A stretch of DNA of 64,000 nt from Yuukianura sp. NJ FZ-2021 (GCA_046563655.1 CM102289.1:2790001-2854000); one strand, 5' to 3'. Counted from the stretch's first letter, positions 15,040 through 64,000 are shown. The notes: generated by a model from the letters alone, not told the origin. Made by a program: numbers and translations.

Positions 15040-15775
15040 TCTCGTCGAGGTAATATTCAAAGACTGGCATGTTGGCGTGATGGTTTACTGATATGATATA
15101 CATTGAAATGAAATTCTTTGACGCCTCAAAATCCATAATTAATTGGTTCCTAGAAAATAAAATTTGATTATGTTGATGGATTTGCAATTAATTTTTTATT
15201 TTTGAAATATCGACGTCAATTCCTAGTTGACTAGAAATTAAAACCCGGCCGTCTTTGAGTCAAAAATGTTCAAAAAAAAGTGACAAACATTTAACCCTAA
15301 ATTAAAAAAAAATTAATACTCAAAACATTTTTCAAGATATAAAAAGCTCGCTTGGCTTCTAAACAAAAACTTATGAAACAAAAGAAAATTAAAGGTGAAC
15401 ATAAAATGTAGATTGAGATACTCAATTGTTTATTTTAATTTTTGGTCCATGCTTACGAAGTTAGAATCGTTTTCATATTCATTTCCTTGAATTTCCTGCA
15501 ACTCAACTTTGCCATTTTTAAATTTCGAGTTGTGGGTTGAAAACCTTGAATAAGATGACTCTGATACAAATCGCGCCAATTCTGGAATGGGGCGGTGGTT
15601 CTCGAAATTAGTATTTTGGATTAATTGAAATTCCGGAAAAAAAAGTTTTTCTTTGGAAGGAATTCAAATGTAAAAGGTGCTTGAAGGATAAACCTCCTCC
15701 GCTTTTTTCGGATTTGCCCAAGGGCTTTGTCTTTCATTCCACTCAATTTCAATTTCAGTTGTGCAACATCTTCAC

Positions 15776-18645: not shown

Positions 18646-19420
18646 TCTCGTCTCGGTAATATTCAAAAACTGGCATGTTGGCGTGATGGTTTACTGATAT
18701 GATATACATTGAAATGAAATTCTTTGACGCCTCAAAATCCATAATTAATTGGTTCCTAGAAAATAAAATTTGATTATGTTGATGGATTTTCAAATAAATT
18801 ACTTATTTTTGAAATATCCTCGTCAGTTCCAAATTAACTAGAAATTAAAATCATGCCGCCGTTGAGTCAAAAATGTTCAAAAAAGTGACAAACATTTAAC
18901 CCTAAATTAAAAAAAATATTAATACTCAAAACATTTTTCAAGATATAAAAAGCTCGCTTGGCTTCTAAACAAAAACTTATGAAACAAAAGAAAATTAAAG
19001 GTGAACATAAAATGTAGATTGAGATACTCAATTGTTTATTTTAATTTTTGGTCCATGCTTACGAAGTTAGAATCGTTTTCATATTCATTTCCTTGAATTT
19101 CCTTCAATTCAACCTTGCCATTTTTAAATTTCGAGTTGTGGATTGAAAACCTTGAATAAGATGACTCTGATACAAATCGCGCCAATTCTGGAATGGGACG
19201 GTGGTTCTCAAAATTCGTATTTTGGATTAATTCAAATTCCGGGGGAAAAAAGTTTTTCTTTGGAAGGAATTCAAATGTAAAAGGTGCTTGAAGGATAAAC
19301 CTCCTCCGCTTTTTTCGGATTTGCCCAAGGGCTTTGTCTTTCATTCCACTCAATTTCAATTTCAGTTGTGCAACATCTTCACCTTGTTGGATACTTATTG
19401 TTGTTTACGTTTTGAGAACC

Positions 19421-32754: not shown

Positions 32755-33566
32755 ATAATAGCGAAGCTATTATGATAAAAGTGGTTTGTCTGTCTGTCTG
32801 TCTGTCCGTCCGTCTGTCTGTCTGTCCGTCTGTCCGGATTAATTATCTCAGAAACTACTGGTCCGATTTCATTCCGGTTTTCACCGGTGACCATGTCATG
32901 ACCCGGGCTTGGTCACTATTGAATATGACCCCCGGGTGTCAACTCCTTCCGGGTCAAAGGTCAAGGTCAACCGGTTTCATCCCCGGTAACATAGAAAATG
33001 ACCTCTACAAAAGTTGTTCATCTCATCGAGAGGAACAACTTTTGTGTGTAATGTGTGACCCTAGGTCACCTGCTTCCGGGTCAAAATCGATTTCAAAGGT
33101 CATTTAACTCTGCTTGTGAGACTGGAAAGACAATTGGCATGGGAGTTGGTTCTCTGCTTAGCAAAAAATCTATTACGCAGTTGACATAGTATACACATTA
33201 CACACTCATGCACTGTGTCCACCGGGTGTCACCTGTCACTTGGCGGGTGTCACCTGTCACTTCCGGGTGTGACCTGTCACCTGTCACTTCCGGGTGTCAC
33301 CTGTCACTTGCCGGGTGTCACCTGTCACCTGTCACTTCCGGGTGTCACCTGTCACCTGTCACCTCCGGGTGTCACCTGTCACCTGTCACTTCCGGGTGTC
33401 ACCTGTCACTTCCGGGTGTCACCTGTCACTTCCGGGTGTCACCTGTCACCTGTCACTTCCGGGTGTCACCTGTCACTTGCCGGGTGTCACCTGTCACTTG
33501 CCTTTAGAAAGCTGCCCTATTGCTTCGCTATTATCATTATGGGCGGTTTACAACCGGTTTATTATT
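32755..33566 (+). mobile_element. DINE-1/Helentron-type non-autonomous element with internal minisatellite
   Basis: Perfect 13-bp subterminal IR ataatagcgaagc (32755) / gcttcgctattat (33522); ctgt/ccgt microsatellite near the 5' end; 3' hairpin cggtttacaaccg. Confidence 0.8.
33221..33500. repeat. Minisatellite of ccgggtgtcacctgtcactt units with variable tgtcacc sub-repeats
   Basis: About 12 tandem units of roughly 20-27 nt, directly visible. Confidence 0.95.
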
Positions 33567-34059
33567 ACCCAACTTTTTTCTACGTCGACGTTTTTCCGCA
33601 ACGATCCCTTGTCTGTAACCTTTCCGTTGCTGCAAAATGGAAAGTTGACGTAGAATTTTTGTTGTTGTTGCAATTTGTTCATATGTTTTTGCTAGTGATC
33701 TCCCCCCATAGATATGGGGTTATATTACAAAAGAAATTTTAAAAGTTTGTTTTTGAAATTTATTTTTTTCACAAAAGGGTAACTTTTTTCTTGTTTTGAA
33801 AATAACCTTTTCAAGGTTTCGTTGTTAGGGTTGTTCTTTGAATTTGAGGTTGTGTTGTGCTTTTCTGCTGTTACCATTTTTTCTTCTCCATAGTTCGAGA
33901 ATAACAAAATCAGTAAGTTCGAGCCGTTCCACTATGGGAAATAAGAAGAGAATGTGTTTCAAGTTTTACGGGCAAAGTGAATGGAAAACCTGAAACACAT
34001 TCCCTCTATATCTCCCACTGTGCGTTCGTGAGTTCTCGGAATTCCAAAATAAGAATAAG

Positions 34060-43077: not shown

Positions 43078-45486
43078 ATGCTCCGGTTTTGGTTTTTGGT
43101 AAAAATAGTTTTAATTTTACTTGTACTTGGAAGTTTAGAGGAATCGAACACGACTTTCCACATTCTAAACCTGCATCAACTGGTAGATCAGTTTCCACAT
43201 AGCGACAATATGATAATTGCTGAAAATCTTCAATTTGAAATTACTTCAAGTTTTGCTGTCCCAGTAAAGTTGTACTACATGTGGCACAGACATGGAAACT
43301 GCGAAGGTATTTATCGCGACTTTGACGGAATTGACAGCAAGCAGATCAGTGCCAAAAAATTACAAAACTTTGAAGTTTTTCTCATATTTCCAAACACTGT
43401 TTTCGAAGAATTGGAATACAGAGGCCCATCTAAATCTTGTTTCAACTCCAACTACGGCTTTCAATCTGAGTCTGGAAATGTATCCAGACGGTACGGCGTT
43501 TCATTTCATGTTTTACATTACAACGCATCTGTTAAATATACCATTGCTTCATTAGTTTCCTACGGCTACTATAGATCAATCTTCTTGTACAACCTTGCAT
43601 ACACTCAACATTCAAAAAATAATGGTAAAACCGAATTTGAAATTACCGCTTTATCATTCGTGTATGGCCACCAAGCAACTTCTCATTCGATGAACACAAC
43701 TGAAGCCTTGCTGTTGCATCGTTTTAAACAAATGGTTCCGAAAGTGACAAAAATTGCCAGAAATTTACTCATTCCTCCTCGTGTCACTATTTGGCCTAAC
43801 GGAAGTGAATCAGGGAAGGCAAGAATAGAAGTCGCCAAGATTTTAAATCCATTCAAACAGCACCAATTGGCGCCAAAATCTCTTGCGCTCCATGATTACA
43901 TTGACTTTCATCTAAAAAATATTCTGGTTTACCCCGTTAAGTTTTCCGGAAAATCTAAAACTCCCGAATGGTGGATTTTTAGCAATCGACAAAGTCTGTT
44001 TAATTTACAAACGCCAACAATACTTGTACACCATTTTGTACCTACCAAAATGGAAAATATTAGTTTTGTGACTTGTGATGGAATAGTAATTGACATGTTC
44101 AGTTTTAAAATTTATACAAAACCGTACGATATTTACTTTTGGAGCACCGCATTAGCAATATTAGTGTTATTAATATTTGTTGCCTCGTGGATAAACCATG
44201 TTCGGCGGTCTAAAATTTCTCAGTTGCAAAATTTTGGATGCGTAGCTCTAGATTTCTTTTTTCTATTTCTTGGAAGCTTGTTTGAAACATTTTCTAAACG
44301 ACAACAAATTACAACAAGAAATCGCAGAATATTTGTAGTTGGCTTATGGTTTCTTTTAGCCGTGGTTGTAACAAATGCGTACAAGGGTGTAGTTGTATCG
44401 TACTTGATTTCTGCAATACCTATAAGGCAAATTTATCATAGGTTTAATCAATTACAGGACTTTGTTGTATTCATTGATGGTATATCCCATCATCACATCC
44501 TGACTGATCCAGAAAATATGTTTGTCAGATTTCTTCGTTACAAGTTTCAAGCGATAGAGCTTTTGTCATTGTTTGAATGTGATGATGAACTAAAAAGTAA
44601 TACCCAAGTACGAGCGCTTGAAACATTTCCGATGGCAATTTCCGGAAATTCCGCTTTAAGGCGGATAGCTAATCTTCAGAGATTAAACAAATTTCAATGC
44701 CTAAATATTTCAAAAAAACCATTGGGAAGGTTGGCTAGCGCCGACTCGTTTGCATACTACGACTATCCGCAAGGATTTAACAAAATAAAGTCTGTAGGTA
44801 ACTTTCTAAGACCAAAACTACCAAAAAAATTTGTGCTTGGGACGCTAAAAGTCTTGAGCTACATTGACAAATACAGAAATATTGAATTTGGACTTACGAG
44901 ACTTTCGGAACTTTTATCACTTTGTACTAAAACAGCCCTCGTGTCAACCGACTCAAATTTAGATTATGTTTTAGCACACTATGGAAACACCGTAGAGCAG
45001 AAAAGACGCCAAGGTTTGAATTCTGCTGAAGATTGTGTATATTTTCGCAAAGGAACTGAACCTGTTGGAACACTTTTTCTAGGATACAATGTATATACAC
45101 CGTGGGACTATACAAAGTTACTGGAAATTATGGCCTCTGGAATTTATCATTTGTGGGAAAAGTGGTTTCCCATTACTAGACCTACTGAACGGGACAAACT
45201 GATAAGGCAATATGAAAAAACAAAATCACCAACATATGTACCCAAAAAACTAAATTTAACCGGAAACATAACTACTGCCTTTTACATTCTCCTGTGTAGC
45301 TTGGGTTTGGCTAATTTAGCATTTATTTATGAAGTGAAACTAATAGGTTGTAACTATCTAATTCGGATGAAAGCTAAAGTTTATAAACTAAGAATCCACA
45401 TTTCACGGCATTTTAAAAGAAGAAGAACGAAGATTTCCAGGGTTTCTTCTGCTAGGAAAATACGAGTCGCGAGTTTACAACAATAA
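43078..45486 (+). CDS. Intronless divergent ionotropic receptor (802 aa)
   Basis: Signal peptide; SFVTCD..FSFKIYTKPYDIYFW, GSLFE, WFLLAVVVTNAYKG, IMASGIYHLWE, KLNLTGNITTAFYIL..LAFIYE. Confidence 0.8.
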   Translation: MLRFWFLVKIVLILLVLGSLEESNTTFHILNLHQLVDQFPHSDNMIIAENLQFEITSSFAVPVKLYYMWHRHGNCEGIYRDFDGIDSKQISAKKLQNFEVFLIFPNTVFEELEYRGPSKSCFNSNYGFQSESGNVSRRYGVSFHVLHYNASVKYTIASLVSYGYYRSIFLYNLAYTQHSKNNGKTEFEITALSFVYGHQATSHSMNTTEALLLHRFKQMVPKVTKIARNLLIPPRVTIWPNGSESGKARIEVAKILNPFKQHQLAPKSLALHDYIDFHLKNILVYPVKFSGKSKTPEWWIFSNRQSLFNLQTPTILVHHFVPTKMENISFVTCDGIVIDMFSFKIYTKPYDIYFWSTALAILVLLIFVASWINHVRRSKISQLQNFGCVALDFFFLFLGSLFETFSKRQQITTRNRRIFVVGLWFLLAVVVTNAYKGVVVSYLISAIPIRQIYHRFNQLQDFVVFIDGISHHHILTDPENMFVRFLRYKFQAIELLSLFECDDELKSNTQVRALETFPMAISGNSALRRIANLQRLNKFQCLNISKKPLGRLASADSFAYYDYPQGFNKIKSVGNFLRPKLPKKFVLGTLKVLSYIDKYRNIEFGLTRLSELLSLCTKTALVSTDSNLDYVLAHYGNTVEQKRRQGLNSAEDCVYFRKGTEPVGTLFLGYNVYTPWDYTKLLEIMASGIYHLWEKWFPITRPTERDKLIRQYEKTKSPTYVPKKLNLTGNITTAFYILLCSLGLANLAFIYEVKLIGCNYLIRMKAKVYKLRIHISRHFKRRRTKISRVSSARKIRVASLQQ

Positions 45487-46375: not shown

Positions 46376-47727
46376 ATGACAAGTCTTTCGGTAATTGTGA
46401 ATTTAATAAAATCAGCTAAATTAGGTTATGAAAAGCGTATGCTTAATATGTATACAATTTCTTCATTTTCTTTTTTAGATATTTGAGTATAACTCGGCGA
46501 AAGTTAGAATTAGAAATCGAGAAGAGGTGACAGAATTAATTACAAGGCTTCGTTCCGGAGGACCTTCAAATTTACAGGTAGCTAAACTGCGCATGTCAAT
46601 TGGAATGAAACAAAAATGCGTTTTCTTTTCTTTTTAAAAACTTGAAAAAATTCACTTGTTCTTTTTATTTCAGCAATAATTTGAGCATGCTAAATAGTTT
46701 CCTTTTGGTAGGTTATTACAGACTTTGATTTCACTCTTTCCAAGGCTCATACAGAAACCAAGAAATGTCTTCCAGCGGCAGGTCAGTTTTACTCTTTTAC
46801 TGTTTTAATGTTGATATTTTTTTACTTAAGTTTTCTAACTATGTTTGGAGTATTCTGAACACAAATATTGATTACTTTAGGTATTATTCGGCAAAGTTCG
46901 CTCATGCCGGAAGAGTTCAAAGCCCGAGCCCGTGAGAGATATTACAAGCTACTTCCAGTTGAACTTGATCCCACGATGACAATTGAGCAAAAAATTCCAA
47001 TTGTGGTAGCCAGTTTTAAGGAAGGTTTTGCAGATTTGGTCAACATAAATCTACTCAACAGAAAAAATTTAGCTGAACTAATTTCCAATGGTGACAAAAA
47101 CTGTAATTTTGAACTAAGGTAATGCTTATGAAGTTACAAAAGTTACAAAAGTAAGATTTAATTATTGACTCTATATCACAGAGATCGGTGTGATGTAACT
47201 CTGCAGTTCTTAAACGATGAAAACATTCCAGTTGTGATATTTTCTGCTGGATTTGGTGATGTGGTTGAAGGACTCCTTAAAAAATTTTCCTTGGACTTTC
47301 CAAATATTCATGTCATTGGGAACTTTATGGACTTTGATGAAAACGACAAACTTATTGGCTTCAAGGAACCTCTCATACACAGTTTCAACAAGGACGAATC
47401 CGTTTTGCCTCCAAATTGTCCATTTCTGGATGATCTCGCTCATAGAAAAAATGTGATTCTACTTGGAGATTTAATCGGAGATGTCACTATGGCCAATGGA
47501 GTCGAAAATCCGGAAACTGTGTTAAAAATCGGGTTTTTAAATGATGTCGTAAGTACAATACTATTTCAAAAGTTGCGGTGAATTAGTGTTTAGTAATATC
47601 AAATTTGAATTTTTAGAACGAGGAGCTACTGGACAATTTTCTGGAAATCTACGATATAGTTTTGCTGGATGATCAGACTATGGATTTTGTCAACTGCCTG
47701 CTGCGAGAAATTTGTACCACAATTTAA
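46376..47727 (+). CDS. Cytosolic 5'-nucleotidase III / m7GMP nucleotidase (HAD, UMPH-1 family), ~6 exons
   Basis: LQ|VITDFDFTLSK (DxDxT), IPVVIFSAGFGD, GFKEPLIHSFNK, NVILLGDLIGDVTMANG, LKIGFLND, YDIVLLDDQTMD. Confidence 0.92.
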
Positions 47728-49829: not shown

Positions 49830-51179
49830 ATGTCTACTCGTTTTTCGACTTTTCAACGAAAATTTTGCATTGGAATAGCTTTACTTTATATCATAGGATT
49901 GGGAAATGGACAAGTGACGTATACCCAAAAAGAACGTGACGCTTTGCAGAAGGTACGTACCAAAGTGTTTCAAAATGGAGTGAAAACGCCCGCATTTTTC
50001 AGAAATTAAAGTTCAGTTTAACCTCACTGAAAGTTAATGCGGACAAGGTTTTGTCCGAAAAGTGCGACAATTGGCTTACTTTGAAACGTTTTGAACAAAG
50101 TATTAAAATATGCTATGATAAAGTTTGACAAACTTTTGATCGAATTTCATATTTCAGTTTCGGAACAAAGTCAGCAAGGAATTGGTTAAAGATTTTCATA
50201 AGCGAGATGCGTATTTAATGCGATATCTACGAAGTACGTTACCAAATATTTTAATCATTCAGAAAAAAATTAATTGCAGTTAGGTAATAACTTTTTATGT
50301 CTTGTCAGCTCATGATTTTAACATGGAGAAAGCCGTCAGGAGCCTTGAAAAGGTAAAAACAAAGTAAACCCTACAGATTCATAGCAGCAAAAAGAGTATA
50401 TTTTAATTGTTTTTGAAAAAAAATCATAACCATTCCGTAGGTCCACGATTGGAGAAAGGATAAGGAAATTGATCGAATCTTAGAAGCTGATTTATCACAG
50501 CATTATAAAAACCTGCCTTACAAAATCGATGGAGTTGACAAAGAGGGAAATCCGCGTGAGTATAAAACTAATTAACCTTGTCCGCTCATTCTATCTGAAC
50601 TTATAATTTACCTTGAATGTGTGCTGGTCTTTAGTCTTACGCCTATACTTTGGAAGATGGCAAATTCGTAAATATAGCATCTCCGGAAAACGGGACACAA
50701 TTATTAAAGTATTTCGACAAATGCATGAAAAAATGTTTCAAAAAATTTGGGAAACGAGAGACAGCACAAACCAAGATGTGGACCAGTTTTATTTTGTGGT
50801 CGAATTGCTTGGCTTCAACGGCAGAGATCAACTTTGCTTCGGATGCTTGCCAATCATTCTACAATTTGCCGCTGGGTTCGACGCTGGCTCAAGTGTATTT
50901 GTCCGGAACACTACACTGGTTAACAGTAAGTACTTTTTGATCTAGGAGGAAAAATTTAGTAACAAAAACATAATTATAAATCCATTCGCTTCAGCACCAA
51001 GAATATTTCTGCCGGCTTTGGGGCTGGTCAAACAACTCTGGACGGGTTCCACACTTTTGAAGTCTTTTGGCATATACGATTCGGACAAAACTATCTGGCA
51101 GCCAGCACTGTTTAAAGACGTCGATCCTAGTCAGTTGCCAAAATCTTTGGGTGGTACGAAGCAAAATGACAAGGTTTAA
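49830..51179 (+). CDS. SEC14/CRAL-TRIO lipid-binding protein with N-terminal signal peptide, ~6 exons
   Basis: FRNKV..DAYLMRYLRAHDFNMEKA..WRK..ID..PYKIDGVDKEGNP..VN|TPRIF..VDPSQLPKSLGGT; hydrophobic N-terminus FCIGIALLYIIGLGNG. Confidence 0.88.
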
Positions 51180-51377
51180 AAGATTCACGAAAATAAAATT
51201 ACAGATGGAATTCGATATATTAAAGTAAACTATTTAGAATATTTAAAATTTTTGGAAGCAAAAAAGAATTAGTCATAATTTTTGCATAGCGGATATTGGA
51301 ACTGTTTTTACTATTGCCGATATAATTTTTAACGCAGTTTGTGAAACTTTTGAATTAAAAGTTTAGCTTAACTTTGA

Positions 51378-52578
51378 CTAATTCTGCCATTGATCTTGTC
51401 TTAAATTGTAGCGAATCAAATCCATGTAAGTTCCGTAAAAATTTGCAGCAGTCGGATGAATGCGTCTTAATTCATGGAAGCCTAGTCTTAGAGCAATGTT
51501 TTGACTTTTGTAGTTCTCCACAGCACAATCAATTGCAATTTCTGTAAGTTGCAGTTCCTGAAATCCAATTTTCACTAGTTCAGTGCAGCATTCTGTAACA
51601 ATACCGAGTCCTTGAAGTTCTTCTGTAAGCCAGTATCCTATTTTTGCCTCTTTTTTGAGCAAATCCACTTCAACAAAACCTGCTGTACCAGCAATAGCCC
51701 CTTTGTAAAAAATTCCAAATACGTGACCAGTATTTTCTGAGAAAGATTTTTGTGTGCTGATGATAAAATCCAAACTGTCACTTTCTTTTGTGCAAGTGTC
51801 TAGCCATGGAAGCGGTTGAGGTAAGCTTTAACGAGCGCCATTGTAGCCGCACAGTGTAGCCGCTGGCGGCCATCTTGCGTGGCTACAATGGGTGGCTACG
51901 CTTGAGCGGCAACATTTGTAGCCGCCAGTGAGAAAATTCGTATTGTCGCCACCCTATTGTAGCCGCACATGCTAAATAATGCTGGCAACAATGTTTGAGA
52001 ATTACCTTACTAGATGCACTCGAACTAACGCACGTAACTAAAACCGACAATTTAATCACTATTGTCTAGTATCCTAACCTAACACCGCGCCTTCGGCGCG
52101 GGAAAATAAAAGTGAATTCACGAAATTAAACAGTATAAAAGGTCCGCCAGTTTCCTGTTTTATACTGTTTCATTCGGTGAATTTATTTACTTTTATTTTC
52201 CCGCGCCGAAGGCGCGGTGTTAGGTTAGGTTACTTGATTAAAGTGGCCTAATTCTAAAACAGTGTTGCCGGCATTATTTAGCATGTGCGGCGACAATAGA
52301 GTGGCAACAAGGAAAATTTTCTCACAGGCGGCTACAAATGTTGCCGCTCAAGCGTAGCCACCCATTGTAGCCACGCAAGATGGCCGCCAGCGGCTACACT
52401 GTGCGGCTACAATGGCGCTCGTTAAAGCTTACCTCAACCATGGAAGCCATTTCCGCAAATATGATCTGTTCGTTTCAGTTAATTTGAAAAGGGCTTCACT
52501 ATGAATCGATTCTAGTCTTCTTAGTTCCAAATCGTCCGAGAGGATTCTTGGGGATGACACTACTTTAGTTGCTTCCAT
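51378..52578 (-). pseudogene. RimL/YdaF-type (bacterial ribosomal-protein N-acetyltransferase-like) GNAT, interrupted by a MITE
   Basis: Removing 51814-52439 and one TSD gives an uninterrupted ORF: MEATK..LELRRL..LFKLTETNRSYLRKWLPWLD..AKIGYWLTEELQGLGIVT..CAVENYKSQNIALRLGF. Confidence 0.85.
51814..52439. mobile_element. Nearly fully palindromic MITE (626 bp)
   Basis: Arms start ggttgaggtaagctttaacgagcgcc and pair over almost the whole length; TSD atggaagc at 51806-51813 and 52440-52447. Confidence 0.95.
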
Positions 52579-52583
52579 GCTTA

Positions 52584-52965
52584 CGCCTGGTTTATAGTCT
52601 CACTCTTCACTTCATGCTCACTTCGCTGTTATGTCGCTTTCACTATCACTTTTCTTGCGAGTGAACTATAAATTAGACATACAGTTTCATTACAACATCA
52701 CTTCACCTTCATTTTCACTCCGTCGTCACTTTGAGAAAAGTTGACTCCGGTTCAACTTTGAAAAAGTGAAGGAAAAGTGACGACGAAGTGATACGAAAGT
52801 GAAACTCAAAATAGGCAGCGAGTGAAAGAGGAAGTGAAGAGGAAACGAAAAGTGAGACAGGGATGATCATGTCCTCATCACTTCCGACTCTAAATACGAC
52901 AAAGTGACGGAGGAAGTGAAGTTCAGCACAAAAGTGAAGTGAAAAGTGAGACTATAAACCAGGCG
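52584..52965. mobile_element. PIF/Harbinger-type MITE (382 bp)
   Basis: TIR cgcctggtttatagtctcact / agtgagactataaaccaggcg; 3-bp TTA TSD; internal tcact/agtga repeats. Confidence 0.9.
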
Positions 52966-53703
52966 TTACTACTTTCGTGCCATTTAAGAAACCCAAGGAT
53001 CGGACAAAGCTCTGTACTAAAATTTAAAAACGTAAGTAATTCAAGTTTGACCTTGATGATCAGCAGAAAGTAAATAAAATCAAAAATTAAACCAAAAGTA
53101 AAATCAAGGAAATTGGGTTTATAAATCCTTACCCGAAGAATGCGCTTGATCGTCTTAATTTTCAAAATGACCAAAATAACGGTTTTAATTGATTATAATA
53201 TTATTAAAACGTTTATAGTTTATCACACCGCTTTACTTTTGCAAGTAACGTTTTATTTCAGTATTTTACAAGAGAAAAGCTCTTGCTTTTTTTATTGGAT
53301 AGAGAAAACTAAACTTCTGTTTGATGTTGGTTTGTCTGAAAATCGACTCGCATATTGCATCACACATATACTTTAATAAATCGTACAGAATTTAATCAAA
53401 TCATCCTCTTGCTATAAGTAAATGATAAGACCATAAATTTTAACATACAAAAAATTCCTATACTGAAAAGAGCAATGTCATTCTTTCCAAGCAATTCGAA
53501 CTCTTGTAGTAGTGAATTTGACAGACCAAAATGAACGCAACTTTTTCGACAGATGAAGAAAAACGCATACAGTTATGAGAAAAAAGACAAAGTACGGAGA
53601 CTCCGATTTTTGTGGATGCCAAAAAATTGAAGTTTAAAAAAAAGCTTCCAATCTTTATTGACTTTTATTTTGAATTCACGTGAGGTTATGAGGGGTCAAT
53701 CGC

Positions 53704-55346
53704 TTACAATCCTCGTCTAGCAATCAACTGACTAACGGCTCCTAAAGCACTCAGGCGGCCATACCCAACATGATTGTTTGGATACTCCGTTTGCGGAACT
53801 TCGCCACACGGGAGGATGCATGTTTCTGGAATTGTATGCAGAGCACTTTGAGCCAGAATGCTTTTGACCTCGCTAAATGTTAACTCTGTTCCATTTGTAT
53901 GCAGCAGAGCCACAACACCAGCAACATGCGGAGCCGCCATGGAAGTACCGGACATTGTTGCCAAACCGGTATCGCTCTTAGCATCAGCCGATACGACATT
54001 CACTCCAGGAGCAGTTATGTCCGGACGAATTGTGCCTTCTCTTCCTGGACCACGGCTGCTGAAGTAGGCCAAATGATCGGTTGAATTGGAAGCTCCAGTT
54101 GCAATTAGGTCTAACGAAGTTTGAGCCCGGTAGCCATTGGTTGAACAACGTGAGCCACTATTTCCAGCGGACCACACCGGGATAATTCCAGCAGCATTCC
54201 AAGCTCTGATGGTGTCATCCAGAAAATCTTCGTCATCTCCTGGACTTTTACCCCAACTGTTGCTGATGATATGTGGAGCAACTGTGCAATCGGGTTCAGT
54301 TCCATTGGCATGTGTTGGACACAGGAAGAATTGACCACACTCCAAGTATTCGTCATAGCCTGACATGGAAGCGGCACAGGCAATCCATTGCGCCTCTGTC
54401 ACACAGTTTAATTTTATTTTTAAAAGGAATACTTTTTCAAATACAGCACAACCTCAAAATAAGAAACAAAAAAGCCTCAAGCCTTTCTCCATTTCTTGTC
54501 ATGGGCCTCAGTGAGGCTTCCTTTATGGCCGCACTGAGATTTCATTGAGATGAAAGGGAGAAAGGGTTGAGGTTTTTTGTTTCTTATTTAGAGGTTATGC
54601 TGTAACAAAATTTTAGAATTTTCAGTACCTGGTGCAACTCCAATGCCACCTCGACCTAAAATGGTTCCCATTACATGTGTACCGTGACCTCCATCATCGT
54701 GTGGAGTCAGGTAGCCATTTTCAACGTCAATCCAACCGCGGTTTTCACGATAGTTCTCTGTCAGCGTTACATGACTAAGCCTCACTCCGGTATCCAACAT
54801 TCCAACAACCACGCCTCTACCAGTAAATCCAAGAGCCCAAGCCGCTGGAGCTTCAATCATGTCAACTCCCCATTGAATTTCATTGGCAGCATCCAATGGC
54901 GATGCTGGAAAACTCTCTTCACGCGGATCAAGAACAATTTTATTGTCTCGAATGGCTTCAATGTCTTCCAAAGCACTGAGAGCTCGGACAAGCTCAAGGT
55001 CAGCATCCTTCACCAAAATTCGGTTGCTGATCCAGAAACTCTTGAAAACCTTATTTCGGGAACTCAAGAACTCAGTGACGGATTTCTGAGAAAAAGCAGT
55101 AAACTTTTGAAGAGCCGACGCAAGCGTAGTAATACGATCTCCACGAGACGCAAATGATTGTTGATTGATTTGGTTCAGAATGGCCGCAGTTGATTGGCGG
55201 AGAGCAAGAACAATTTCAACAGTGGGTTCGTTTTGTATGGCTTCTAGAACTGATGGTGCAATTCGAGCATGCTGCTGCTGCAAATCCGCTGAGCTGGCTT
55301 GATTCCAGCACACTGCCAGTACAACAATGACGGTAACTTTGTACAT
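53704..55346 (-). CDS. Secreted S8 subtilase, bacillopeptidase F-like, copy 1; exons 55346-54629 and 54395-53704
   Basis: Signal peptide and propeptide; catalytic motifs VGMLDTGV, HGTHVMGT, SGTSMAAPHVAG; PHIISNSWG and SAGNSG. Confidence 0.93.
54444..54602. mobile_element. Small TA-flanked Tc1/mariner-type MITE (159 bp) in the S8 intron
   Basis: Imperfect ~50-bp TIR cagcacaacctcaaaataagaaacaaaaaa / ttttttgtttcttatttagaggttatgctg; TA on both sides; absent from the paralogous intron. Confidence 0.8.
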
Positions 55347-55879
55347 TTTCAAAATTTTACAAAAAAAAATTAATCTGAAAGGTGGAACTTAATTGGAATA
55401 CGACTTTAAATATATTCAAAACGGCAGTTTTTATCGGGAAATGTGGCTGAAAAGTTGGGAAATCTGAAGTGGCAATTTAACAAATTTACTTATAACTAGC
55501 AACTTTCCGCTTGTCAAGAAACACTTGCGTCCTACAATGTCCAAAGGCAGATTCAATTGAGAATGTGGGAGGGAAAACCGAAACCAAGGTCAAACTTAAC
55601 CCGAAGCTGACCGGACCAGTGAATTCAACAGGAATTTTGCTTTCACCTTGCAATCATACTATTCCAAACTTATCTCGAGCCAAACATAAGCTTTTTTTTA
55701 TTGTATTCGCCAACACTATTGCACTTGTTAGCTGAGATGACGTAATCGTTATTAATAAACCATCATAAATATTCAATAATTGAAACCAAATTTTATCGAC
55801 CCGTTTCTGAACTTTGTTTTAAATTACATATTTTTTAATTCAATTTTGATAACCTAGAGTGTTAAAATATTTTCAAAGT

Positions 55880-56298
55880 CAATTTTAGTTGGTTTCCTTG
55901 CGTTGCCACCGTACGTCGCCATGACATCCAGAACTTCATTGACTGCACGACGCATGTGCATTGCACTCTTGTAACCTTGATTGCACATAAGCAATACAGG
56001 CACCTCCCCCCGTTCGATCAATGACCATTTCGGCATAAATTATCCCATTACTTCCATTGTGCCAAACACTTACTCTCTGAGCCCGCAGCTTTCAAATAAT
56101 CCACTAACCCAGCCCAGAGAATATGGCTTGTTAAAGGCACCGGTGTGTAGTCGAGTGTAACATTCCACGGTGAAAAGTCCCGAAATCCCGAGATCTCTCC
56201 GAAGATGATCCAGTACAAATTTAGCAAAATCTTCCAAAGGAACATGAACTGTAGCAGCAGGACTCAGGTAGTGAGCCCATGGTGGAGTGAGTTGAGGA
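55880..56298 (-). pseudogene. 3' fragment of a beta-lactamase-family gene with deletion and frameshifts
   Basis: LTPPWAHY|LSPAATVHVPLEDFAKFVLDHLR matches the intact paralogs minus 16 codons; downstream frameshifts. Confidence 0.88.
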
Positions 56299-56300
56299 CA

Positions 56301-56368
56301 ATTAAGGACATCGACCCTAGTCAGTTGCCAAAATTTTTGGGTGGTACAAAACAAAACAACAAGCTTAA
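56301..56368 (+). pseudogene. Duplicated 3' tip of the SEC14 gene
   Basis: KDIDPSQLPKFLGGTKQNNK matches 51114-51179 (KDVDPSQLPKSLGGTKQNDK) at the DNA level. Confidence 0.88.
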
Positions 56369-56678
56369 AAAACCGTTCTCAAAAATAATATCTATAAAAA
56401 GTTACTAATACTTGTACAAACAAGTCAATAAATTAATGTACATAAGAATAAATCTAGGCTTCTGAAAAGTCAGCCTCCGATTGCAATATTTGTTACAACC
56501 TAACGCAATACACATCGCGAAAATATGTTGGACAAAAGGAAATTTTTTTTTACTGTTTAACTGTTAATACCAAAATAAATTTTCAATTTAAAGAAAAATT
56601 TAAGTTTAATAAAACTTCCATTTTTTAATGAAATTTGTGTTATTTTTGGATTGATCAATTTTTGGAGAGGTCAATCGT

Positions 56679-58155
56679 TTACAATTCTCGTCTTGCAATC
56701 AACTGACTAACGGCTCCCAAAGCACTAAGCCGACCATATCCAACATGATTGTTTGGATACTCCGTTTGCGGAGCCCCGCCACACGGGAGGTTGCATGTTT
56801 CTGGAATTGTATGCAGAGCACTTTGAGCCAGAATGCTTTTGACCTCGCTAAATGTCAACTCTGTTCCGTTTGTATACAACAGAGCAACAACACCAGCAAC
56901 ATGCGGAGCCGCCATTGAAGTACCGGACTTTGTCGACAAACCGGTATCGCTAAGAAAATCAGCCGATACGATACTGACTCCAGGAGCAGTTATGTCTGGT
57001 CGAACTGATTCTTGTCTCCCTGGACCACGACTGCTGAAATAGGCCAAAAGATCGTTTGAATCCGAAGCTCCAGTTGCAATTAGGTCTAGGCTGGTTTCAG
57101 CTGGATAGCCATTGGTCGCACAATCTGGGCCACTATTTCCACCGGACCATACTGGAATAATTCCAGCAGCATTCCAGGCTTTGATGGTATCATCTAGGAA
57201 ATTTTCGTCATCTCCTGGAGTTTTGCCCCAACTGTTACTGATGATATGTGGAGCAACGGTACAATCCGGTTCAGTGCCGTCGGCATGTGTTGGACACAGG
57301 AAGAATTGACCACATTCCAAATATTCGTCGTAACCTGACAGCGAAGCTCCACAGGCAATCCATTGCGCCTCTGTAAGAAAGTTTTATCAAAAAATATTTC
57401 AGGCAAACCTTTTGAGATAACAAAATTTCAAAATTTTCAGTACCTGGTGCAACTCCAATGCCACCTCGTCCTAAAATTGTCCCCATCACATGTGTACCGT
57501 GACCATCAAGATCCCGTGGAGTCGGATGTCCGCGGTAAACGTCAATCCATCCGCGGTTTTCGCGGTAGTTTGCAGTCAGCGTTTCGTGGCTCAGTCGTAC
57601 TCCAGTATCCAGCATTCCAACTACTACACCTCTACCAGTAAATCCAAGAGCCCAAGCCGCTGGAGCTTCTATCTTTTCTACTCCCCATTGAACTTCATTA
57701 GCAGCATCCAATGGCGATGCTGGAAAGCTCTCTTCACGCGGATCAAGAACAATTTTGTTGTCTCTAATGGCTTCAATGTCTTCCAAAACACTGAGAGCTC
57801 GGACAAGGTCAAGGTGAGCATCTTCCACCAAAATTCGGTTGCTGATCCAGAAACTCTTGAAATTCTTATTTTCGGAAATCAAGAAGTCAGTGACATATTT
57901 TTGGGAAGAAGCTGTGAAATTTTGAAGAGCAGACGCAAGCGTAGTAATTCGATCTCCACGAGAAGCAAATGATTTTTGGTTGATCTGGTTCAAGACGGAC
58001 GAAGTGGATTGCCGGAGAGCGAGAACAATGTCAACAGTGGGTTCGCTGTCTAGAGCTTCTAGAACCGCTGGAGCAATTCGAGCTTCCTGCCCTTGTGCTA
58101 CCGAGGCGTAATGGCAGCTTATAGCCAGAAAAACAATGACAATGACCTTGTACAT
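56679..58155 (-). CDS. Secreted S8 subtilase, copy 2; exons 58155-57444 and 57370-56679
   Basis: Same catalytic motifs and intron position as copy 1; 73-nt intron. Confidence 0.93.
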
Positions 58156-58500
58156 TTTAAAAATGCTGGAGTAAAAAAATTGAACGCAAGTCACAGTTAA
58201 ATTACGGATTTAAGTAATCCAAAACGTTTTATCACTAAATCTTGCTTTGAAGTTGGATAATCTGAAGTGGCCAATATTGTGATAGTTCAGAAAAATTCCC
58301 GCTTGTGGAGAGACACTTACGTCATATTATTTGGTGCTGTTGCACTGATTAGGTGGCCTGAGGTAATTATTATTAATAGAGAATTAGTTTTAATTTGTTC
58401 TACACTAATTGCTTAATTTCTCAAAATTTCTTACTGAATTACTTATTGGTTAATTAGAGTTTAGTAACGCTAGGCATAAAATATTTCTTTAAAATCGATT

Positions 58501-59795
58501 TTAAATTTGTTGTCTAGCGTTGTCGACATACGTGGCCATGACATGCAGAACTTGATTGGCTGCTCGACGCATGTCATTATCACTGTTAGTATAACCTTCA
58601 TTGCACGTAGCAATACAAGCGACTCTTCCCGTGCGATCAATGACCATTTCGGCATAGTTTACCCCATTACTTCCATTGTGCCAAATAGTTAAACCCTGAG
58701 CCCAGCTTTCGAAGAATCCATTAACCCAGCCCAGAGCATACCGCTTGTTAAAGGTGCCTGTGTGTAGTCGTTTATAACTTTCCACGGTAAGAAGTCCTGG
58801 AATCCCTAGTTCTCCACGAAGATGATCGAGTACAAATTTAGCAAAATCTTCTAAGGAACAATGAACTGCAGCAGCAGGACTCATGACCAGGGGATTGTCC
58901 CAGTGAAGCGGAATACTGGAGTTGCCCACGGGGTAGTGAGCATACGGTTGAGTGAGTTCCCCTGGAACGGAAGTAGGTCCATATCCGACGCTGGTCATTC
59001 CTAGAGGTCCAAATACATGCGTTGACATCAATTCTTCATAGGATTGACCCGCTAAACGCTCCAGCATGGCAGCGGCAACGACAAATCTACAAATTCCAAA
59101 ATTAAGTTGCAAATTTTGAAAAGAATTTGCGACTACTGCAAATAGATCTATTTGCAGTAGGCGCAAATAGAAAAAATGCTAACTCGAGTTAGCATTTTTT
59201 TTTCGTAATTCAGCTTGCTTTGTTTTTACCCCCAGTTTGAATACAGTGTGACCGTTCCGGGAGTTGGGATGGAATCCACTATGTCATTTAACGCCTTGAC
59301 AGTGTTGAGCCTTTGCTCAACCAAAGTGGGAGCTGATTCAGACAGCGCAGTCCAATTCGGGTTGCCGGGAATTCCAGCGGAGTGACTCAAAAGATGCAGG
59401 AAGTTGACTGAGTCGAATTCTGGGCGGAGGTCAAGGTCATCGAAGATGCTGCCCACCGTGGTTTCCCAAGTCACACTTCCTAATTCTACGAAACGAGCTA
59501 CGAGAGTTGCCGTCATTGCTTTTGTACAAGACCCAAGATGCCAAAGGTCATCCGTCGTAACGTTGACCCCTGACCAGCGTTTTCTGGTTCCCCAGGCGCC
59601 GATTCGCACTGTGCCATTTTCGTTCATAAAGAGACCACCGAGTGCTGGAGCATTGTACTTTGCAACGATTGGTTCCAGTAGAAAACTCACATCTTCCACA
59701 GCGTTCGTTTCAATTTTTCTAGCGAAGCCTAACTCTGTTCTAAGAATACCAATTGCAACTAAACTTGCAAAAATTAAACCAAACCTGCATTGCAT
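58501..59795 (-). CDS. Secreted beta-lactamase-family (class C/AmpC-like) serine hydrolase, copy 1; exons 59795-59230 and 59086-58501
   Basis: Signal peptide; WHLGSCTKAMTA (SxxK), LLSHSAG, YSNWG|F (YxN), SPAAAVH, WHNGSN. Confidence 0.92.
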
Positions 59796-61887
59796 TTTGA
59801 AAAAACAATTTCGAAAATTTTATGAAAAACAAAATTTCGATGCTTAAAAAAATCAAGCGCAACAGTGCTTCAGAAGGATAGAAGGTTGAGCGTGTTACAC
59901 AATTAGTATTTCCCAATAAATAGGTATATTTTGTTAAGTAAGTCAAAAAATGAGCCAATTTCGGTGATGATAAGAGTATCACCGATGTGATGCTTATCTG
60001 TTGTTTTTTCGACCAATGTTTCAATTGGATTTTAAAATTTTTGAGTGTTTCAGGACAAATTCATGGATGAAACTTATCACTGTGCTCTGCACTGTATTTG
60101 CAAGTAATTCCTTGCAAATTCTGACGAATTGCACTCTAGTCATAAATACATATAACGCCGAATTAATAAAACGATGACATCACATTTCGAACGTGTAACA
60201 AAAAAACTTGTTTTTTAAACAATTCACAGATGGAGTTACGGATTTAAGTCAACCCTAGTTTCGAGATTGGCGAAATCTGAAGTGGCAACTTTTGCCATAG
60301 CTTACATAATTTCAAAGTTAATCGAGCTGATGTAATCTTATTCTTATTACAGTATTTCTGTCCGGACTCAGTATGAGTGAGCCAACTCCACATCTGTTGT
60401 AACCACGCAGTGTAAACCCCACTGTAATTTCTGGTTACACTCAACTGAGCTATCAGGAGGTTGCAAAATAATTATTTGTGTGTTGAATAATTTAATTGGC
60501 ATTACGAATTGTATCAACTCCGTAATTACGAAAATGCTGTTGCTGGGTACACTCCGTGGATACAACAGTGGCAGATGAGGTTCAATACACGATGTTTCCC
60601 TCCCTACTGTTGTTCCCTCTCCCTCTCACATGCTTTTTCCACAAACAGTGGAAAGCATATCTAACCTATAGCTGCAGAATAACATCATCTACATAAAACC
60701 TGGCTGCGGGCTGACGTACACTTTACACTGAGTCATTGTTCTCTACCAATACTTTGGTCAGTAATAAAACTTATTGTATCCCAATGGATGTCAACTCAAA
60801 AACCCAATACGCCTATAATTTACTAACTAACCTAACTTATGCCCAACTTTAATTAAATTAGTGTTATGTTAGGCAAAACAATCACACAACTTCGGTGGGG
60901 ATACAACGAGGTGGTATTACCTCGCCTGCAGAGGTTTAAGCATGACTATTCCTCTGAAGTGAACTTTTCATCTCAAATAAGGCTGAAGCGCATTTTGTAT
61001 TTCGCCATTGTTCCCTTTAGTTTACGCTTACCAACGTATTGTATCCGTAAGCATGTAAACTAAAAAAAAGTACGTTTTGCAATTAAATACCTAACCTAAA
61101 CCTGCACTACTCTTGCTGGCTTAGTCTTCGTGCGGAGTAATCTATACCATAATACAAAATCTCCTTAGCCCCTCTGCCGTTCGGTCGTCTTCTTCGTGTG
61201 TGACAGGGGTCTGGCTAAAGGTCGGATATTGGACTCCTCTGATTGCTCATGTGAAAGGCTCAAATTGGAGCAAAAATTAAAAAAAAACAACAAGGAATGC
61301 AATGCGGCAAAACGGAATTGCATCCGCTCCGCTGTCTCCTTGCGAAGTGTGACTCGGATGTTTTTGTTACGACTTTGTCCGTCAATCCAACGTTTTGATT
61401 TGCCGTTATGCAAATTCGTGTGTGAGAGGGATCATGCTAAAGGGCAGATCTCTGACTCGAGCGAGGAAGAATAGGTTAGGTTTAGCAAAATCTTATAAAA
61501 CCTAACCAGTGGTGTAATTTAATTTCAAATCGGTAGAGTTTGGGAGAATGATTTGATTTTTTTTAAATGCGGAGTCCGAAATAAACAATCAGAGGAATCC
61601 CAACGCGTACGCATACAAATCCGATTAACTCGAGATCCGAGCGACGGTGTATGTTCCCATCAACGGATTATTTTTTTTTGAAGGGGTACTTAACGGTTGT
61701 GATATTATTTCTTTGTCCAATTACTCCGTCAATCTGGTTACATACGCAATCCTCGAGCTATCAGCGCCCCCGCCAGGGGGCGCGATGGCTCGTTTATTAA
61801 TTAATGCACGTTCATAAGTTTTGATGTATTTAATGCATTCGATTTAAAATTTTAAAATTTTACCATGAATTACATATTACTTATATC

Positions 61888-62649
61888 CAGGCATCCCAGA
61901 AATATTTCTTATCAATATTGTAAATATTTTAAATATAAATTTTTTATAAATATTGCCGAAAAAAGAAAATATTTACTAAATATTTCGGGGTTTTTAAAAA
62001 ATATCGATATTTTTTGCCGATTTTGGACCAAATTTACGGTTTTTTAGACAAATTTTAAACTGAAAACATACAATACACAGGAGGTTTGCTAAAATTGACC
62101 AGGATTTCCAACAATCAATAGCTGTTGTCGTTTTTTAACAACGTAAAACCAAAGTCGATATGCCAGCAGCCAAAACTTAAAGACCAATTTAAGTTTAATC
62201 ATAGGGCATAACGTTCTGAAATTTGAAAAACAATGCGAAATCTGTGCAAAAGACTCCACTCCACTCATGTCAAGCTTTTCGAAACGTTTGTGGCGAGTGT
62301 TTCCCAAGTATACAATTTTCTGAATAATGTATGCAATTTCATAAAGAATAGACGTAAGCAGAACTGTAACATTTTGACCAAAGTAACAGTTCTACGTGGT
62401 GATATGGGTAGGTGAAAACGGTTCAGCGTAAAGAATGCTGAAGTGGATCATGTCACCCACTGTTGCTAAGTAACTAACCGTTACGACGACTGTTGGAGGT
62501 TGCAAGTGAGTTAAATTTTTTGAAAATATATTAAATTTTAAAAAATATTTGCAAAATTAATAAATATTTTAACAAATATTTGGGCGTTTTTTAGTAAATA
62601 TTTCAATAAATATATCGGCACTTTTTAGTAAATATTTCTGGGAAGCCTG
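61888..62649. mobile_element. hAT-type non-autonomous element (762 bp)
   Basis: TIR caggcatcccagaaatattt / aaatatttctgggaagcctg; perfect 8-bp TSD cttatatc; subterminal aaatattt repeats. Confidence 0.9.
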
Positions 62650-62678
62650 CTTATATCACAGTATTTTAGAGGAGCAAA

Positions 62679-63887
62679 TTAAATTGCTTTTCGTGTGTTA
62701 TTGCTAGTGTAGTTGACCATGGCTTCCAGAACTTCGTTGACTGCATTATGCATGTTCATTTCACTGTTGTTACCTTGATTGCAAGAAGCAATACAAGCAA
62801 CTCTTCCCTGGCGATCAATGACCATTTTGGCATAGTTGACCGTATTACTTCCATTGTGCCAAATAGTTAAACCCTGAGCCCAGCTTTCAAACCCATTAAC
62901 CCAGCCAAGGGCATACAAATTGTTAAAGGCGCCGGTGTGTAGTCGCTTATAACTTTCCACCGTGAGAAGTCCCGGAATCCCGAGGTCTCCACGGAGATGA
63001 TCGAGTACAAATTTAGCCCAGTCTTCTAAAGAACAGTGAACTGTGCCAGCAGGACTCAAGACAAGAGGATTGTCCCAGTGAACTGGAATACTGGAATTGC
63101 CCACGGGGTAGTGAGCCCACGGTTGATTAACTTCTCCTGGCACGGAAGTGGGTCCGTACCCGGCGCTGGTCATCCCCAGAGGGCCAAAGACATGCGCTGA
63201 CATCAATTCTTCATAGGATTGGTTCGTGACACGCTCCAACATCGCAGCAGCTACGACAATTCTGCAAATGCAAAATTATTTTTAGATACTCCAAATTTTT
63301 TTAATTTGGTTTTGTTTTTACCCCCAGTTTGAATAAACTGTGACCGTTCCGGGTGCTGGAATGGAATCCACTATGTCATTTAACGCCTTGACAGTGTTGA
63401 GCCTTTGCTCAACCAAAGTCGGAGCAGATTCAGACAACGCAATCCAATCCGGGTTGCCTGGAATTCCAGCGGTGTGGCTCAAAAGATGCAAGAAGTTGAC
63501 CGAGTCGAATTCTGTGCGGAGGTCAAGGTCATCGAAGATACTGCCAACAGTGGTTTCCCAAGTAACACTGCCTAATTCTACGAAACGAGCTACGAGAGTT
63601 GCTGTCATTGCCTTTGTACAAGACCCAAGATGCCAAAGGTCATCCGTCGTCACGTTGACCCCTGACCCGCGTTTTCTGGTTCCCGAGGCGCCGATTCGAA
63701 CTACGCCATTCTCGTTCATAAAGAGACCACCGAGTGCTGGAGCATTGTACTTTGCAACGATTGGTTCCAGCAGAAAACTCACATCTTCCACAGCGTTCGT
63801 TTCAATTTTTCTAGCCAAGCCTAGCTCAGCTCTAACAATACAAAGTACGAGTAAACTTTTAAAAATTAAAGCCAACTTGTACTGCAT
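62679..63887 (-). CDS. Secreted beta-lactamase-family serine hydrolase, copy 2; exons 63887-63322 and 63261-62679
   Basis: Same SCTK, YSN and HNG motifs; 60-nt intron at the same position as in copy 1. Confidence 0.92.
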
Positions 63888-64000
63888 TTTGCAAAAAAAA
63901 GCAATTGGCTAACTATTAAAAAACAAAATAACGAAACTTTAAAAAATGCAATTTCGAAAATTTGAAAAAAAAATCGTATGAGTCGGGGTTTTGGAAGACT

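Follow-up and report, generated by a model that had tools for sequence, protein, structure and literature searches.

A foreign-gene island in a springtail-like hexapod, probably assembled from three separate acquisitions and remodelled in place

How does a cluster of bacterial-looking enzyme genes come to lie among ordinary animal genes in a springtail-like hexapod, and did it arrive in one piece? We addressed this question for a stretch of 64,000 nucleotides from the assembly of Yuukianura sp. NJ FZ-2021 (GCA_046563655.1, CM102289.1:2790001-2854000; hereafter the window, with positions counted from its first letter), where 12.5 kb at 51378-63887 contain one GNAT-family gene, two S8 subtilase genes, two hydrolase genes of the Pfam family PF00144, and one hydrolase pseudogene fragment. 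An earlier note on this DNA had described three enzyme families lying entirely on the minus strand and read them as a single bacterial-style module domesticated in an animal; the open reading frames (ORFs) and their Pfam matches bear out the families and the shared strand. Our analysis makes it probable that the cluster is a foreign-gene island, assembled from three separate acquisitions and subsequently remodelled in place: the S8 subtilases would go back to an ancient acquisition, of oomycete type, on the collembolan stem, the PF00144 hydrolases would have come from a source nearest to Verrucomicrobiota, Planctomycetota, and Aminicenantota, and the GNAT would have been acquired from a Cardinium-like endosymbiont. 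Foreign genes in springtails are already known, and the phenomenon itself is not new: in the main texts of the reports on the Folsomia candida and Orchesella cincta genomes, foreign genes with introns and linked to native genes are described, with bacterial, fungal, and protist donors (PMC5490193, PMC4987106). Here, by contrast, three donor types would stand side by side within 12.5 kb.

The bacterial style that the earlier note ascribed to all three families did not hold for the S8 subtilases. PF00082 (Peptidase_S8) matched the minus-strand ORFs 53704-54402, 54588-55352, 56679-57320, and 57271-58194 with E values from 1e-30 to 3e-9, the C-terminal halves of the two proteins scoring 107.6 and 107.5 bits and the N-terminal halves 39.3 and 37.2 bits (cut-off, 21.8). 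Both copies begin with a hydrophobic leader, followed by a pro-region of ~120 amino acids and a catalytic domain with the Asp, His, and Ser motifs in this order (MLDTGV, GHGTHVMGT, and SGTSMAAPH), which include the subtilase catalytic motifs DTG, HGTH, and GTSMA; G-T-S-M-A-x-P-H is invariant in our S8 alignment A2. With the catalytic half as the query, and longer proteins only as targets, 4726 of 7996 scored proteins reached an E value of 0.001 or less, and the best 120 were considered. Among these, the rows with an organism name were 28 from oomycetes (Aphanomyces, Saprolegnia, Pythium, Globisporangium, and Thraustotheca), three from Collembola (Orchesella dallaii and two from Allacma fusca), seven from bacteria, and one from another eukaryote; 15 further rows were called bacterial by inference from their accessory domains, and 66 came without an organism name. 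The latter include the four closest relatives among the best 120, at 53 to 61% identity (the 61%-identity group being P0123-P0126), which are encoded on contigs of only 1.5 to 3.4 kb. A metagenome scan with a generic S8 pattern matched at least 603 stretches, of which 516 encode relatives, the best of the 80 kept being 42% identical over the full match; P0123-P0126 were not recovered among these matched stretches.

All trees in this work were built from the best 120 to 150 matches of word-filtered or representative searches. For S8, a quick 122-row tree and a careful 47-row tree under LG+C20 agree. In the 47-row tree, the two genes of the window and the three named collembolan rows fall into one clade (support, 99/96), whose sister group is made up of Pythium, Globisporangium, and Saprolegnia rows (99/95). 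The bacteria form a separate group (100/99), with clades of Aphanomyces and Thraustotheca branching off between them and the Collembola-like clade. If the tree is rooted on the bacteria, the Collembola-like clade therefore nests within oomycete diversity. The S8 lineage is thus common to other Collembola, and its placement suggests that it was acquired long ago, on the collembolan stem, from an oomycete-type source. A somewhat unlikely but serious alternative is that an unsampled bacterial lineage gave the gene to oomycetes and to Collembola in independent transfers: the next group out consists of bacterial S8 proteins with this architecture, many rows are metagenome proteins without a known origin, and the root is an assumption. 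However, the sister relationship to one particular oomycete clade, with other oomycete clades lying between it and the bacteria, speaks against independent acquisition, as does the fact that bacterial rooting renders the oomycetes paraphyletic around the Collembola-like clade. Secreted subtilases of Aphanomyces, Saprolegnia, Pythium, and Globisporangium share the pre-pro-S8A architecture of ~465 amino acids, align end to end with the proteins of the window, and are 40 to 48% identical to them over the catalytic half. Some oomycete subtilases bear extra ricin, PAN, or tandem S8 domains that the genes of the window do not have, and the latter contain one intron and reside in an animal genome.

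The hydrolases lead to a different set of relatives. PF00144 (Beta-lactamase) matched the minus-strand ORFs 58501-59166, 59226-59795, 62679-63242, and 63318-63887 (E values from 3e-15 to 5e-12), with 46 to 63.6 bits for both halves of the protein against a cut-off of 27. The active-site motifs SxxK (SCTK; S89 and K92) and YxN (YSN; Y185 and N187) are invariant in our hydrolase alignment A1, and WHNGSNG in exon 2, which contains the HNG motif, aligns with HsGSNT of the relatives. In a profile search of PDB, Pab87 ranked first (4e-35), followed by Flp (3.5e-31), alkaline D-peptidase (3e-29), ClbP (8e-28), the R61 DD-peptidase (1.7e-26), and, at about 1e-20, AmpC enzymes. Assignment to the class C (AmpC) beta-lactamases was rejected: the NCBIfam model bla_class_C, whose cut-off is 415, gave the exon-1 half 31.5 bits and did not match the exon-2 half. 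Because of this ranking and this score, we class the proteins as S12-type enzymes of the penicillin-binding fold and not as beta-lactamases. Their best solved relatives, albeit at low identity, are thus S12 peptidases of MEROPS and PF00144 (Pab87, Bacillus alkaline D-peptidase, ClbP, and Streptomyces R61), with which they have SxxK, YxN, and H-x-G in common; neither the C-terminal lipocalin-like domain of Pab87 nor the transmembrane domain of ClbP was seen in the hydrolases of the window.

A search with the exon-1 half returned 582 proteins with an E value of 0.001 or less among 2919 candidates. Eight of the best 120 carry an organism name, and all eight are bacterial metagenome-assembled genomes, with no eukaryote and hence no animal among these eight named rows; the top identity is 47%. 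When prokaryote species genomes were scanned with alignment A1, at least 600 stretches matched and 597 encode relatives, with a top identity of 46% in Aminicenantales; being limited to prokaryotes, this collection can name donors and says nothing on animal relatives. In a tree of 51 rows with named loci, with which a 122-row tree agrees, the hydrolase pair of the window lies inside a clade of 19 rows (support, 98) made up of Verrucomicrobiota (eight rows), Planctomycetota (two), Aminicenantota (two), Lentisphaerota (one), a further group, and rows without a name. In the same 51-row tree, P0001, the best match of the search, groups with Aminicenantales (support, 97). Since the pair sits on a very long stem (1.69), these trees do not single out a donor phylum.

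The GNAT gene differs from both. Its ORF at 51378-51773 (minus strand) matched PF13302 and PF00583 (E value, 6.5e-16; 59.7 bits for PF13302 against a cut-off of 25.4). A word-indexed search gave three proteins with an E value of 0.001 or less among 13 candidates, the best being a GNAT protein of the nematode Ditylenchus destructor (P0241) at 51% identity, and an exhaustive search of representatives gave 4310 at that threshold, six of them at 1e-30 or less. Among the closest single-domain matches is P0261 (45%), a GNAT from the Cardinium that lives as an endosymbiont in Nabis limbatus. Cardinium, Ditylenchus, and the window form a clade in which the latter two are sisters (99/95 in a careful 43-row tree), and the same trio recurs in a quick 187-row tree (support, 96). 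Cardinium has been reported from nematodes, Ditylenchus weischeri among them (PMC12842512), which makes an endosymbiont source plausible for both the nematode copy and the copy of the window. These sequence relationships suggest a transfer from endosymbiont to host, and a GNAT common to a Cardinium symbiont, a nematode, and a hexapod may reflect repeated symbiont-to-host transfer of one gene. The best PDB matches are 1NSL YdaF (4.6e-20), MccE (3e-12), and RimL (about 3e-8). The gene thus resembles GNATs of the RimL/YdaF/MccE type by PDB match and PF13302, and differs from them in being interrupted by a transposon. A RimL equivalog, which would acetylate serine of L7/L12 (NCBIfam PRK10151), was rejected at 54.2 bits against a cut-off of 184, the query being the 144-amino-acid downstream piece, which lacks the N-terminal 44 amino acids. 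Many of the top-scoring GNAT relatives (P0259-P0299) are ~370 amino acids long with two tandem GNAT domains and make up a large tree group of their own.

Each family is thus nested among, or sister to, nonanimal sequences in a supported tree of sampled best matches. The domains PF00144, PF00082, and GNAT all occur in animals, and PCSK9 is among the PDB matches of the S8 half, so that one might think of ordinary, vertically inherited metazoan genes related to LACTB, to subtilases of the PCSK or TPP2 type, and to eukaryotic N-acetyltransferases. We consider this exceedingly unlikely. PCSK9 (about 8e-10) is outscored by archaeal and bacterial subtilisins (best, 4e-15), and the only named animal matches for S8 are Collembola, in a clade beside oomycetes and away from kexin and PCSK labels; the earlier note had raised the prospect of a PCSK grouping, and the phylogeny placed the genes with oomycete and collembolan proteins instead. 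Kexin/PCSK membership (S8B) was rejected on these grounds and because Pfam shows neither a P-domain nor any other domain beyond PF00082, the trees placing the genes with oomycete and collembolan S8A proteins. For the hydrolases, no named animal appears among the best 120 matches (LACTB itself is not in the tree), and the GNAT has its nearest relatives in a bacterial endosymbiont and, with a single protein, in a nematode.

The three different nearest relatives also indicate three separate origins, and the single module of the earlier note did not survive the trees. Transfer of one bacterial operon or module of GNAT, S8, and hydrolase genes, domesticated as a unit, would account for the tight clustering, for the common orientation on the minus strand, and for the hydrolase beside the S8 gene in both duplicated units. 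We nevertheless find it very unlikely, because S8 points to oomycetes and Collembola, the hydrolases to Aminicenantota and the Planctomycetes-Verrucomicrobia-Chlamydiae (PVC) group, and the GNAT to Cardinium and Ditylenchus; moreover, the S8 lineage includes named Collembola while the best 120 hydrolase matches include no named animal, which suggests different ages. Three donor types side by side (oomycete-type, free-living PVC-type bacterium, and Cardinium-type endosymbiont) would point to a permissive landing zone instead of a transferred module.

What, then, has happened to these genes since their arrival? Introns were read off the minus strand and spliced by script, so that splicing is predicted throughout. 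The resulting models of the S8 and hydrolase genes are intact ORFs of 469, 467, 383, and 382 amino acids, each with a single GT-AG intron, as the earlier note had proposed. S8 gene 1 (53704-55346, minus strand) comprises exon 1 at 54629-55346, an intron at 54396-54628 (GTACTG..GACAG), and exon 2 at 53704-54395 (469 amino acids); S8 gene 2 (56679-58155, minus strand) comprises exon 1 at 57444-58155, an intron at 57371-57443, and exon 2 at 56679-57370 (467 amino acids). Hydrolase gene 1 (58501-59795, minus strand) is made of exon 1 at 59230-59795, an intron at 59087-59229 (GTAAAA..TGTAG), and exon 2 at 58501-59086 (383 amino acids), and hydrolase gene 2 (62679-63887, minus strand) of exon 1 at 63322-63887, an intron at 63262-63321, and exon 2 at 62679-63261 (382 amino acids). 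Within each pair, the intron interrupts the same codon and starts with identical bases (GTACTGAAAATT in the S8 genes and GTAAAAACAAA in the hydrolase genes), from which it follows that the introns are older than the duplications. Their lengths differ by later additions: the 233-nucleotide intron of S8 gene 1 equals the 73-nucleotide intron of S8 gene 2 plus a 163-bp hairpin element, and the 143-nucleotide intron of hydrolase gene 1 equals the 60-nucleotide intron of hydrolase gene 2 plus two short palindromes. The latter are adjacent, perfect or near-perfect, 44 and 30 nucleotides long (within 59125-59200), and absent from the intron of the paralog.

Both pairs bear the marks of constraint. 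The S8 genes are 81 to 86% identical in DNA (self-blastn) and 85% in protein, and the hydrolase genes 84 to 90% in DNA (self-blastn). The ratio of nonsynonymous to synonymous substitution rates (dN/dS), calculated after Nei and Gojobori, is 0.238 for the S8 pair (467 codons; dS, 0.39) and 0.275 for the hydrolase pair (381 codons; dS, 0.33), and these low values indicate that both copies of each pair have been retained under constraint. A third hydrolase copy did not fare as well. At about 55822-56294 (minus strand; blastn and tblastn) lies a pseudogene fragment, overlooked by the earlier note, that contains the 3' part only, with frameshifts and stops; its 55822-56266 portion is 81% identical to hydrolase gene 1 (58437-58883, blastn), and tblastn gives 52% across hydrolase residues 232-381. 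Fused to it is a copy of the 3' end of a host SEC14-like gene (56302-56391, plus strand; original at 51112-51199; blastn, 81% over 90 nucleotides, E value of 1.4e-17). Each S8 gene has a hydrolase copy directly upstream, so that the duplication must have taken in both genes as a unit, with one of the hydrolase copies decaying later. In a tblastn search of the 64-kb window, no additional fragments of the GNAT, S8, or hydrolase families were found. The spacer of 2.8 kb that separates the hydrolase genes (59900-62679) has no similarity to the three families and includes a 774-bp stretch bordered by 26-nucleotide inverted repeats (61882-62655).

The flanks, in turn, are animal-like. By Pfam matches, some of them weak, the ORFs of the window include multiexon UMPH-1 and SEC14-like genes, a ligand-binding exon of a Cys-loop receptor (Neur_chan_LBD), and DUF4774. 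UMPH-1, a pyrimidine 5'-nucleotidase and host gene, has two exons at 46859-47581 on the plus strand (PF05822; E values, 9.4e-44 and 5.2e-7), and the Atlas clusters nearest to its exon are eukaryotic. The SEC14-like exon at 50946-51179 (plus strand) has a weak CRAL_TRIO match that stays under the Pfam cut-off (E value, 0.0016). Per assembly, the cluster is linked on one contig to the UMPH-1, SEC14-like, Cys-loop, and ionotropic glutamate receptor (iGluR)-like genes. GC content varies between 0.33 and 0.44 across the window, with no step where the cluster begins or ends, and GC content at third codon positions (GC3) is 0.31 to 0.47 in the cluster genes compared to an overlapping 0.32 to 0.43 in eight neighbouring ORFs.

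These observations bear on whether the cluster could be microbial contamination or a chimeric assembly join, an explanation to which we give almost no credence. It may draw on the fact that the sequencing runs containing most of the stretch trace to one sample, which may be the assembly's own source. On the other side stand the predicted GT-AG introns at conserved positions in four genes, the host-like GC and GC3, the copy of the host SEC14-like exon end inside the cluster, and a repeat motif common to the cluster and the host part of the contig (see below); furthermore, no donor-like contaminant is known, the nearest relatives being only 45 to 61% identical. In sum, shared introns, paralog dN/dS, host-like GC3, and the SEC14-like copy make both contamination and vertical metazoan ancestry unlikely. 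That these are foreign genes domesticated in an animal genome, the central proposal of the earlier note, is therefore upheld by the shared introns, purifying selection, host-like GC3, transposable element insertions, SEC14-like copy, and flanking genes. Whatever their sources, the S8 and hydrolase genes now each carry one predicted spliceosomal-type intron, the hydrolase-S8 unit was tandemly duplicated with decay of one hydrolase, a host SEC14-like exon fragment was dragged in, and hairpin elements with terminal inverted repeats (TIRs) inserted, both paralog pairs being kept under purifying selection.

The earlier note had also seen miniature inverted-repeat transposable elements (MITEs) interleaved with the genes. 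Inverted-repeat elements are indeed present in the cluster (11 inverted-repeat pairs in 51000-64000 by repeat search), and one recurring terminal motif (below) goes part of the way towards showing that they are multicopy. The largest element, of 626 bp (51814-52439), lies inside the coding sequence of the GNAT gene; it is a foldback/TIR element with 191-nucleotide arms (51814-52004 and 52249-52439) that are 94% complementary, and it encloses a nested 189-bp hairpin element (52057-52245). A MITE-like element of 384 bp (52583-52966) has 32-nucleotide TIRs that are 97% alike (arms at 52583 and 52935) and lies 5 nucleotides upstream of the GNAT ATG, and a MITE-like hairpin of 163 bp (54442-54604), with 32-nucleotide arms at 54442 and 54573, sits in the intron of S8 gene 1. 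The idea that this hairpin created its host intron was ruled out, as the 73-nucleotide intron of S8 gene 2 is the same intron without the element. The elements of 626, 384, and 163 bp each occur once in the 64-kb window, and the terminal 29-mer of the 626-bp element occurs in it only at the two ends of that element. The one terminal motif that recurs elsewhere in the window is the solitary 39-nucleotide palindrome TTTCCCGCGCCGAAGGCGCGGTGTTAGG (31301-31339), which lies where the contig carries host sequence. It shares 97% identity with the ends of the nested 189-bp element and is probably a solo end or a remnant from that repeat family.

The 626-bp element raises the question of whether the GNAT gene is still alive. 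The gene is read from the minus strand as an upstream coding piece at 52433-52578, which the earlier note had missed, and a downstream piece at 51378-51825. The former starts with the ATG at 52578, matches residues 7-48 of P0241 (BLASTP; E value, 1e-13), and ends in GAG/GTAAGC, a donor-like site inside the TIR of the element (slashes mark splice points or insertion sites); the latter, which carries PF13302 and the 51% identity to P0241 of D. destructor, would be exon 2 if spliced at TTAAAG/C. The upstream piece ends in LRKWLPWL and the downstream piece resumes in LPWLDTCT, and the element is flanked by an 8-bp target-site duplication, GCTTCCAT, read from the minus strand (right copy, 51806-51813; left copy, 52440-52447). 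Removal of the element and one target duplicate restores LRKWLPWLD, contiguous in P0241, in an open frame of 188 amino acids; TIRs, an 8-bp duplication, and a motif restored by removal together fit a TIR transposon. The termini of the element are near-palindromic (GGTTGAG/GTAAGCTTTAAC at one end and GTTAAAG/CTTACCTCAACC at the other) and offer both a donor and an acceptor whichever way the element is turned. Predicted splicing from GAG/GTAAGC to TTAAAG/C would yield an open frame of 197 amino acids with nine extra residues, the footprint consisting of 7 plus 12 nucleotides of element and the 8-bp duplication, that is, 27 nucleotides, a multiple of three. We do not take the in-frame splice itself as evidence for an intron, as at least two nearby AG sites (GAAAG/T and GACAG/T) are in frame too.

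Have the 626-bp element in LRKWLPW/LD and the second element at the ATG inactivated the gene and left a dead relic? In our judgment this is an even call. The insertion splits a motif that runs uninterrupted in the Ditylenchus homologue, every canonical splice leaves extra residues or deletes some, and the 384-bp element ends just short of the start codon. Against decay, both coding pieces are open, with neither a stop nor a frameshift, although the arms of the element have diverged by 6%, an argument that is weak because few disabling changes are expected at this divergence; similarly weak is the argument that the TIR ends provide the donor GAG/GTAAGC and the acceptor TTAAAG/C with a footprint that stays in frame. 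The GNAT would be an intracellular enzyme, functional today only if the inserted element is spliced out.

Introners, including introns derived from MITEs, are transposons that create spliceosomal introns. The 626-bp element is like them a noncoding TIR element with a target-site duplication inside an exon and with ends compatible with GT...AG; unlike introners that restore the exon, excision at the canonical sites would here leave the 27-nucleotide footprint, and splicing is here a prediction. Since this footprint is divisible by three wherever the element lands, an exon could bear such an insertion, which might then go to fixation as a new intron. It is accordingly conceivable, though we think it rather improbable, that the element is an intron-making transposon in a hexapod and that foreign genes from three donor types accumulate in a permissive, transposon-rich landing zone. 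If so, the window would catch a foreign, originally intronless GNAT in the act of gaining an intron. The literature we searched contained no relevant paper on introners in Collembola or on intron gain by introners in arthropods. The transposon-split GNAT is the most unusual element of the locus and offers a testable case for TIR elements becoming introns in hexapods.

As for function, N-terminal hydrophobic leaders, judged by eye, are present on the S8 and hydrolase proteins (for example, MYKVTVIVVLAVCWNQASSA and MQCRFGLIFASLVAIGIL). The proteases and hydrolases may be secreted, in line with the gut or antimicrobial role that the earlier note proposed, and digest microbial protein and D-amino-acid cell-wall peptides or related acyl compounds, possibly in the gut or on the body surface; secreted subtilases and S12-type D-peptidases would be plausible tools for the digestion of microbial biomass.

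Several points weigh against an island of three acquisitions. On the S8 side, the root of the tree was assumed and not inferred, the bacteria are joined to one of the oomycete clades with weak support (47/18 in the 47-row tree), and only three of the 31 rows of the Collembola-like clade have a name, the others coming from short contigs. The stem of the hydrolase pair is very long (0.9 to 1.69), and the GNAT, with a transposon in a conserved motif and a second element abutting its ATG, may be dead. None of the genes reached the cut-off of a named NCBIfam equivalog with half-protein queries, and sampling of the best matches could hide closer bacterial relatives of S8 or animal relatives of the hydrolases.

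Compared to published work on springtails, the families themselves have a familiar ring. The main texts of PMC5490193 and PMC4987106 and two supplements of the former do not mention lactamase, subtilisin, or acetyltransferase, though their other supplements may list them. Among the gene families listed as expanded in strains of Folsomia candida (PMC10087712) are "Bacillopeptidase F" and "Beta-lactamase", next to SEC14-like and F-box families; at the Pfam level these match the gene content of the window, a correspondence of annotation labels only. The collembolan subtilases labelled "bacillopeptidase F" may have a eukaryotic, oomycete-type source and not a bacterial one. Our literature search returned no paper in which collembolan subtilases are tied to oomycetes, a GNAT of Collembola is traced to Cardinium, or PVC bacteria are named as the source of this hydrolase family, although supplements outside the search may list such genes.

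The window also holds other features of note. Of the five DNA sequencing runs listed, four come from one sample; the fifth, X5, which has a second organism label and stems from a different study, contains 0.20 of the sampled words from 51300-61200. Two near-identical tandem ORFs of 638 and 640 amino acids (13144-15060 and 16744-18666, minus strand), without a Pfam match, are each followed by an ORF of 168 or 169 amino acids. An ORF of 802 amino acids at 43078-45486 looks related to this pair; it has a weak match, under the cut-off, to the iGluR channel family Lig_chan (E value, 6e-4). Between 24306 and 41666 (plus strand), at least six long single-exon paralogous ORFs of 394 to 458 amino acids form an array; the sole member scanned, 24306-25616, had no Pfam match, and several members start with MKDVLTCRLVCRNWRDN and are F-box-like in appearance. 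Inside this array, at 33215-33742 (plus strand), lies a low-complexity, coding-like repeat of VTCHLSLPG units that is readable in two frames.

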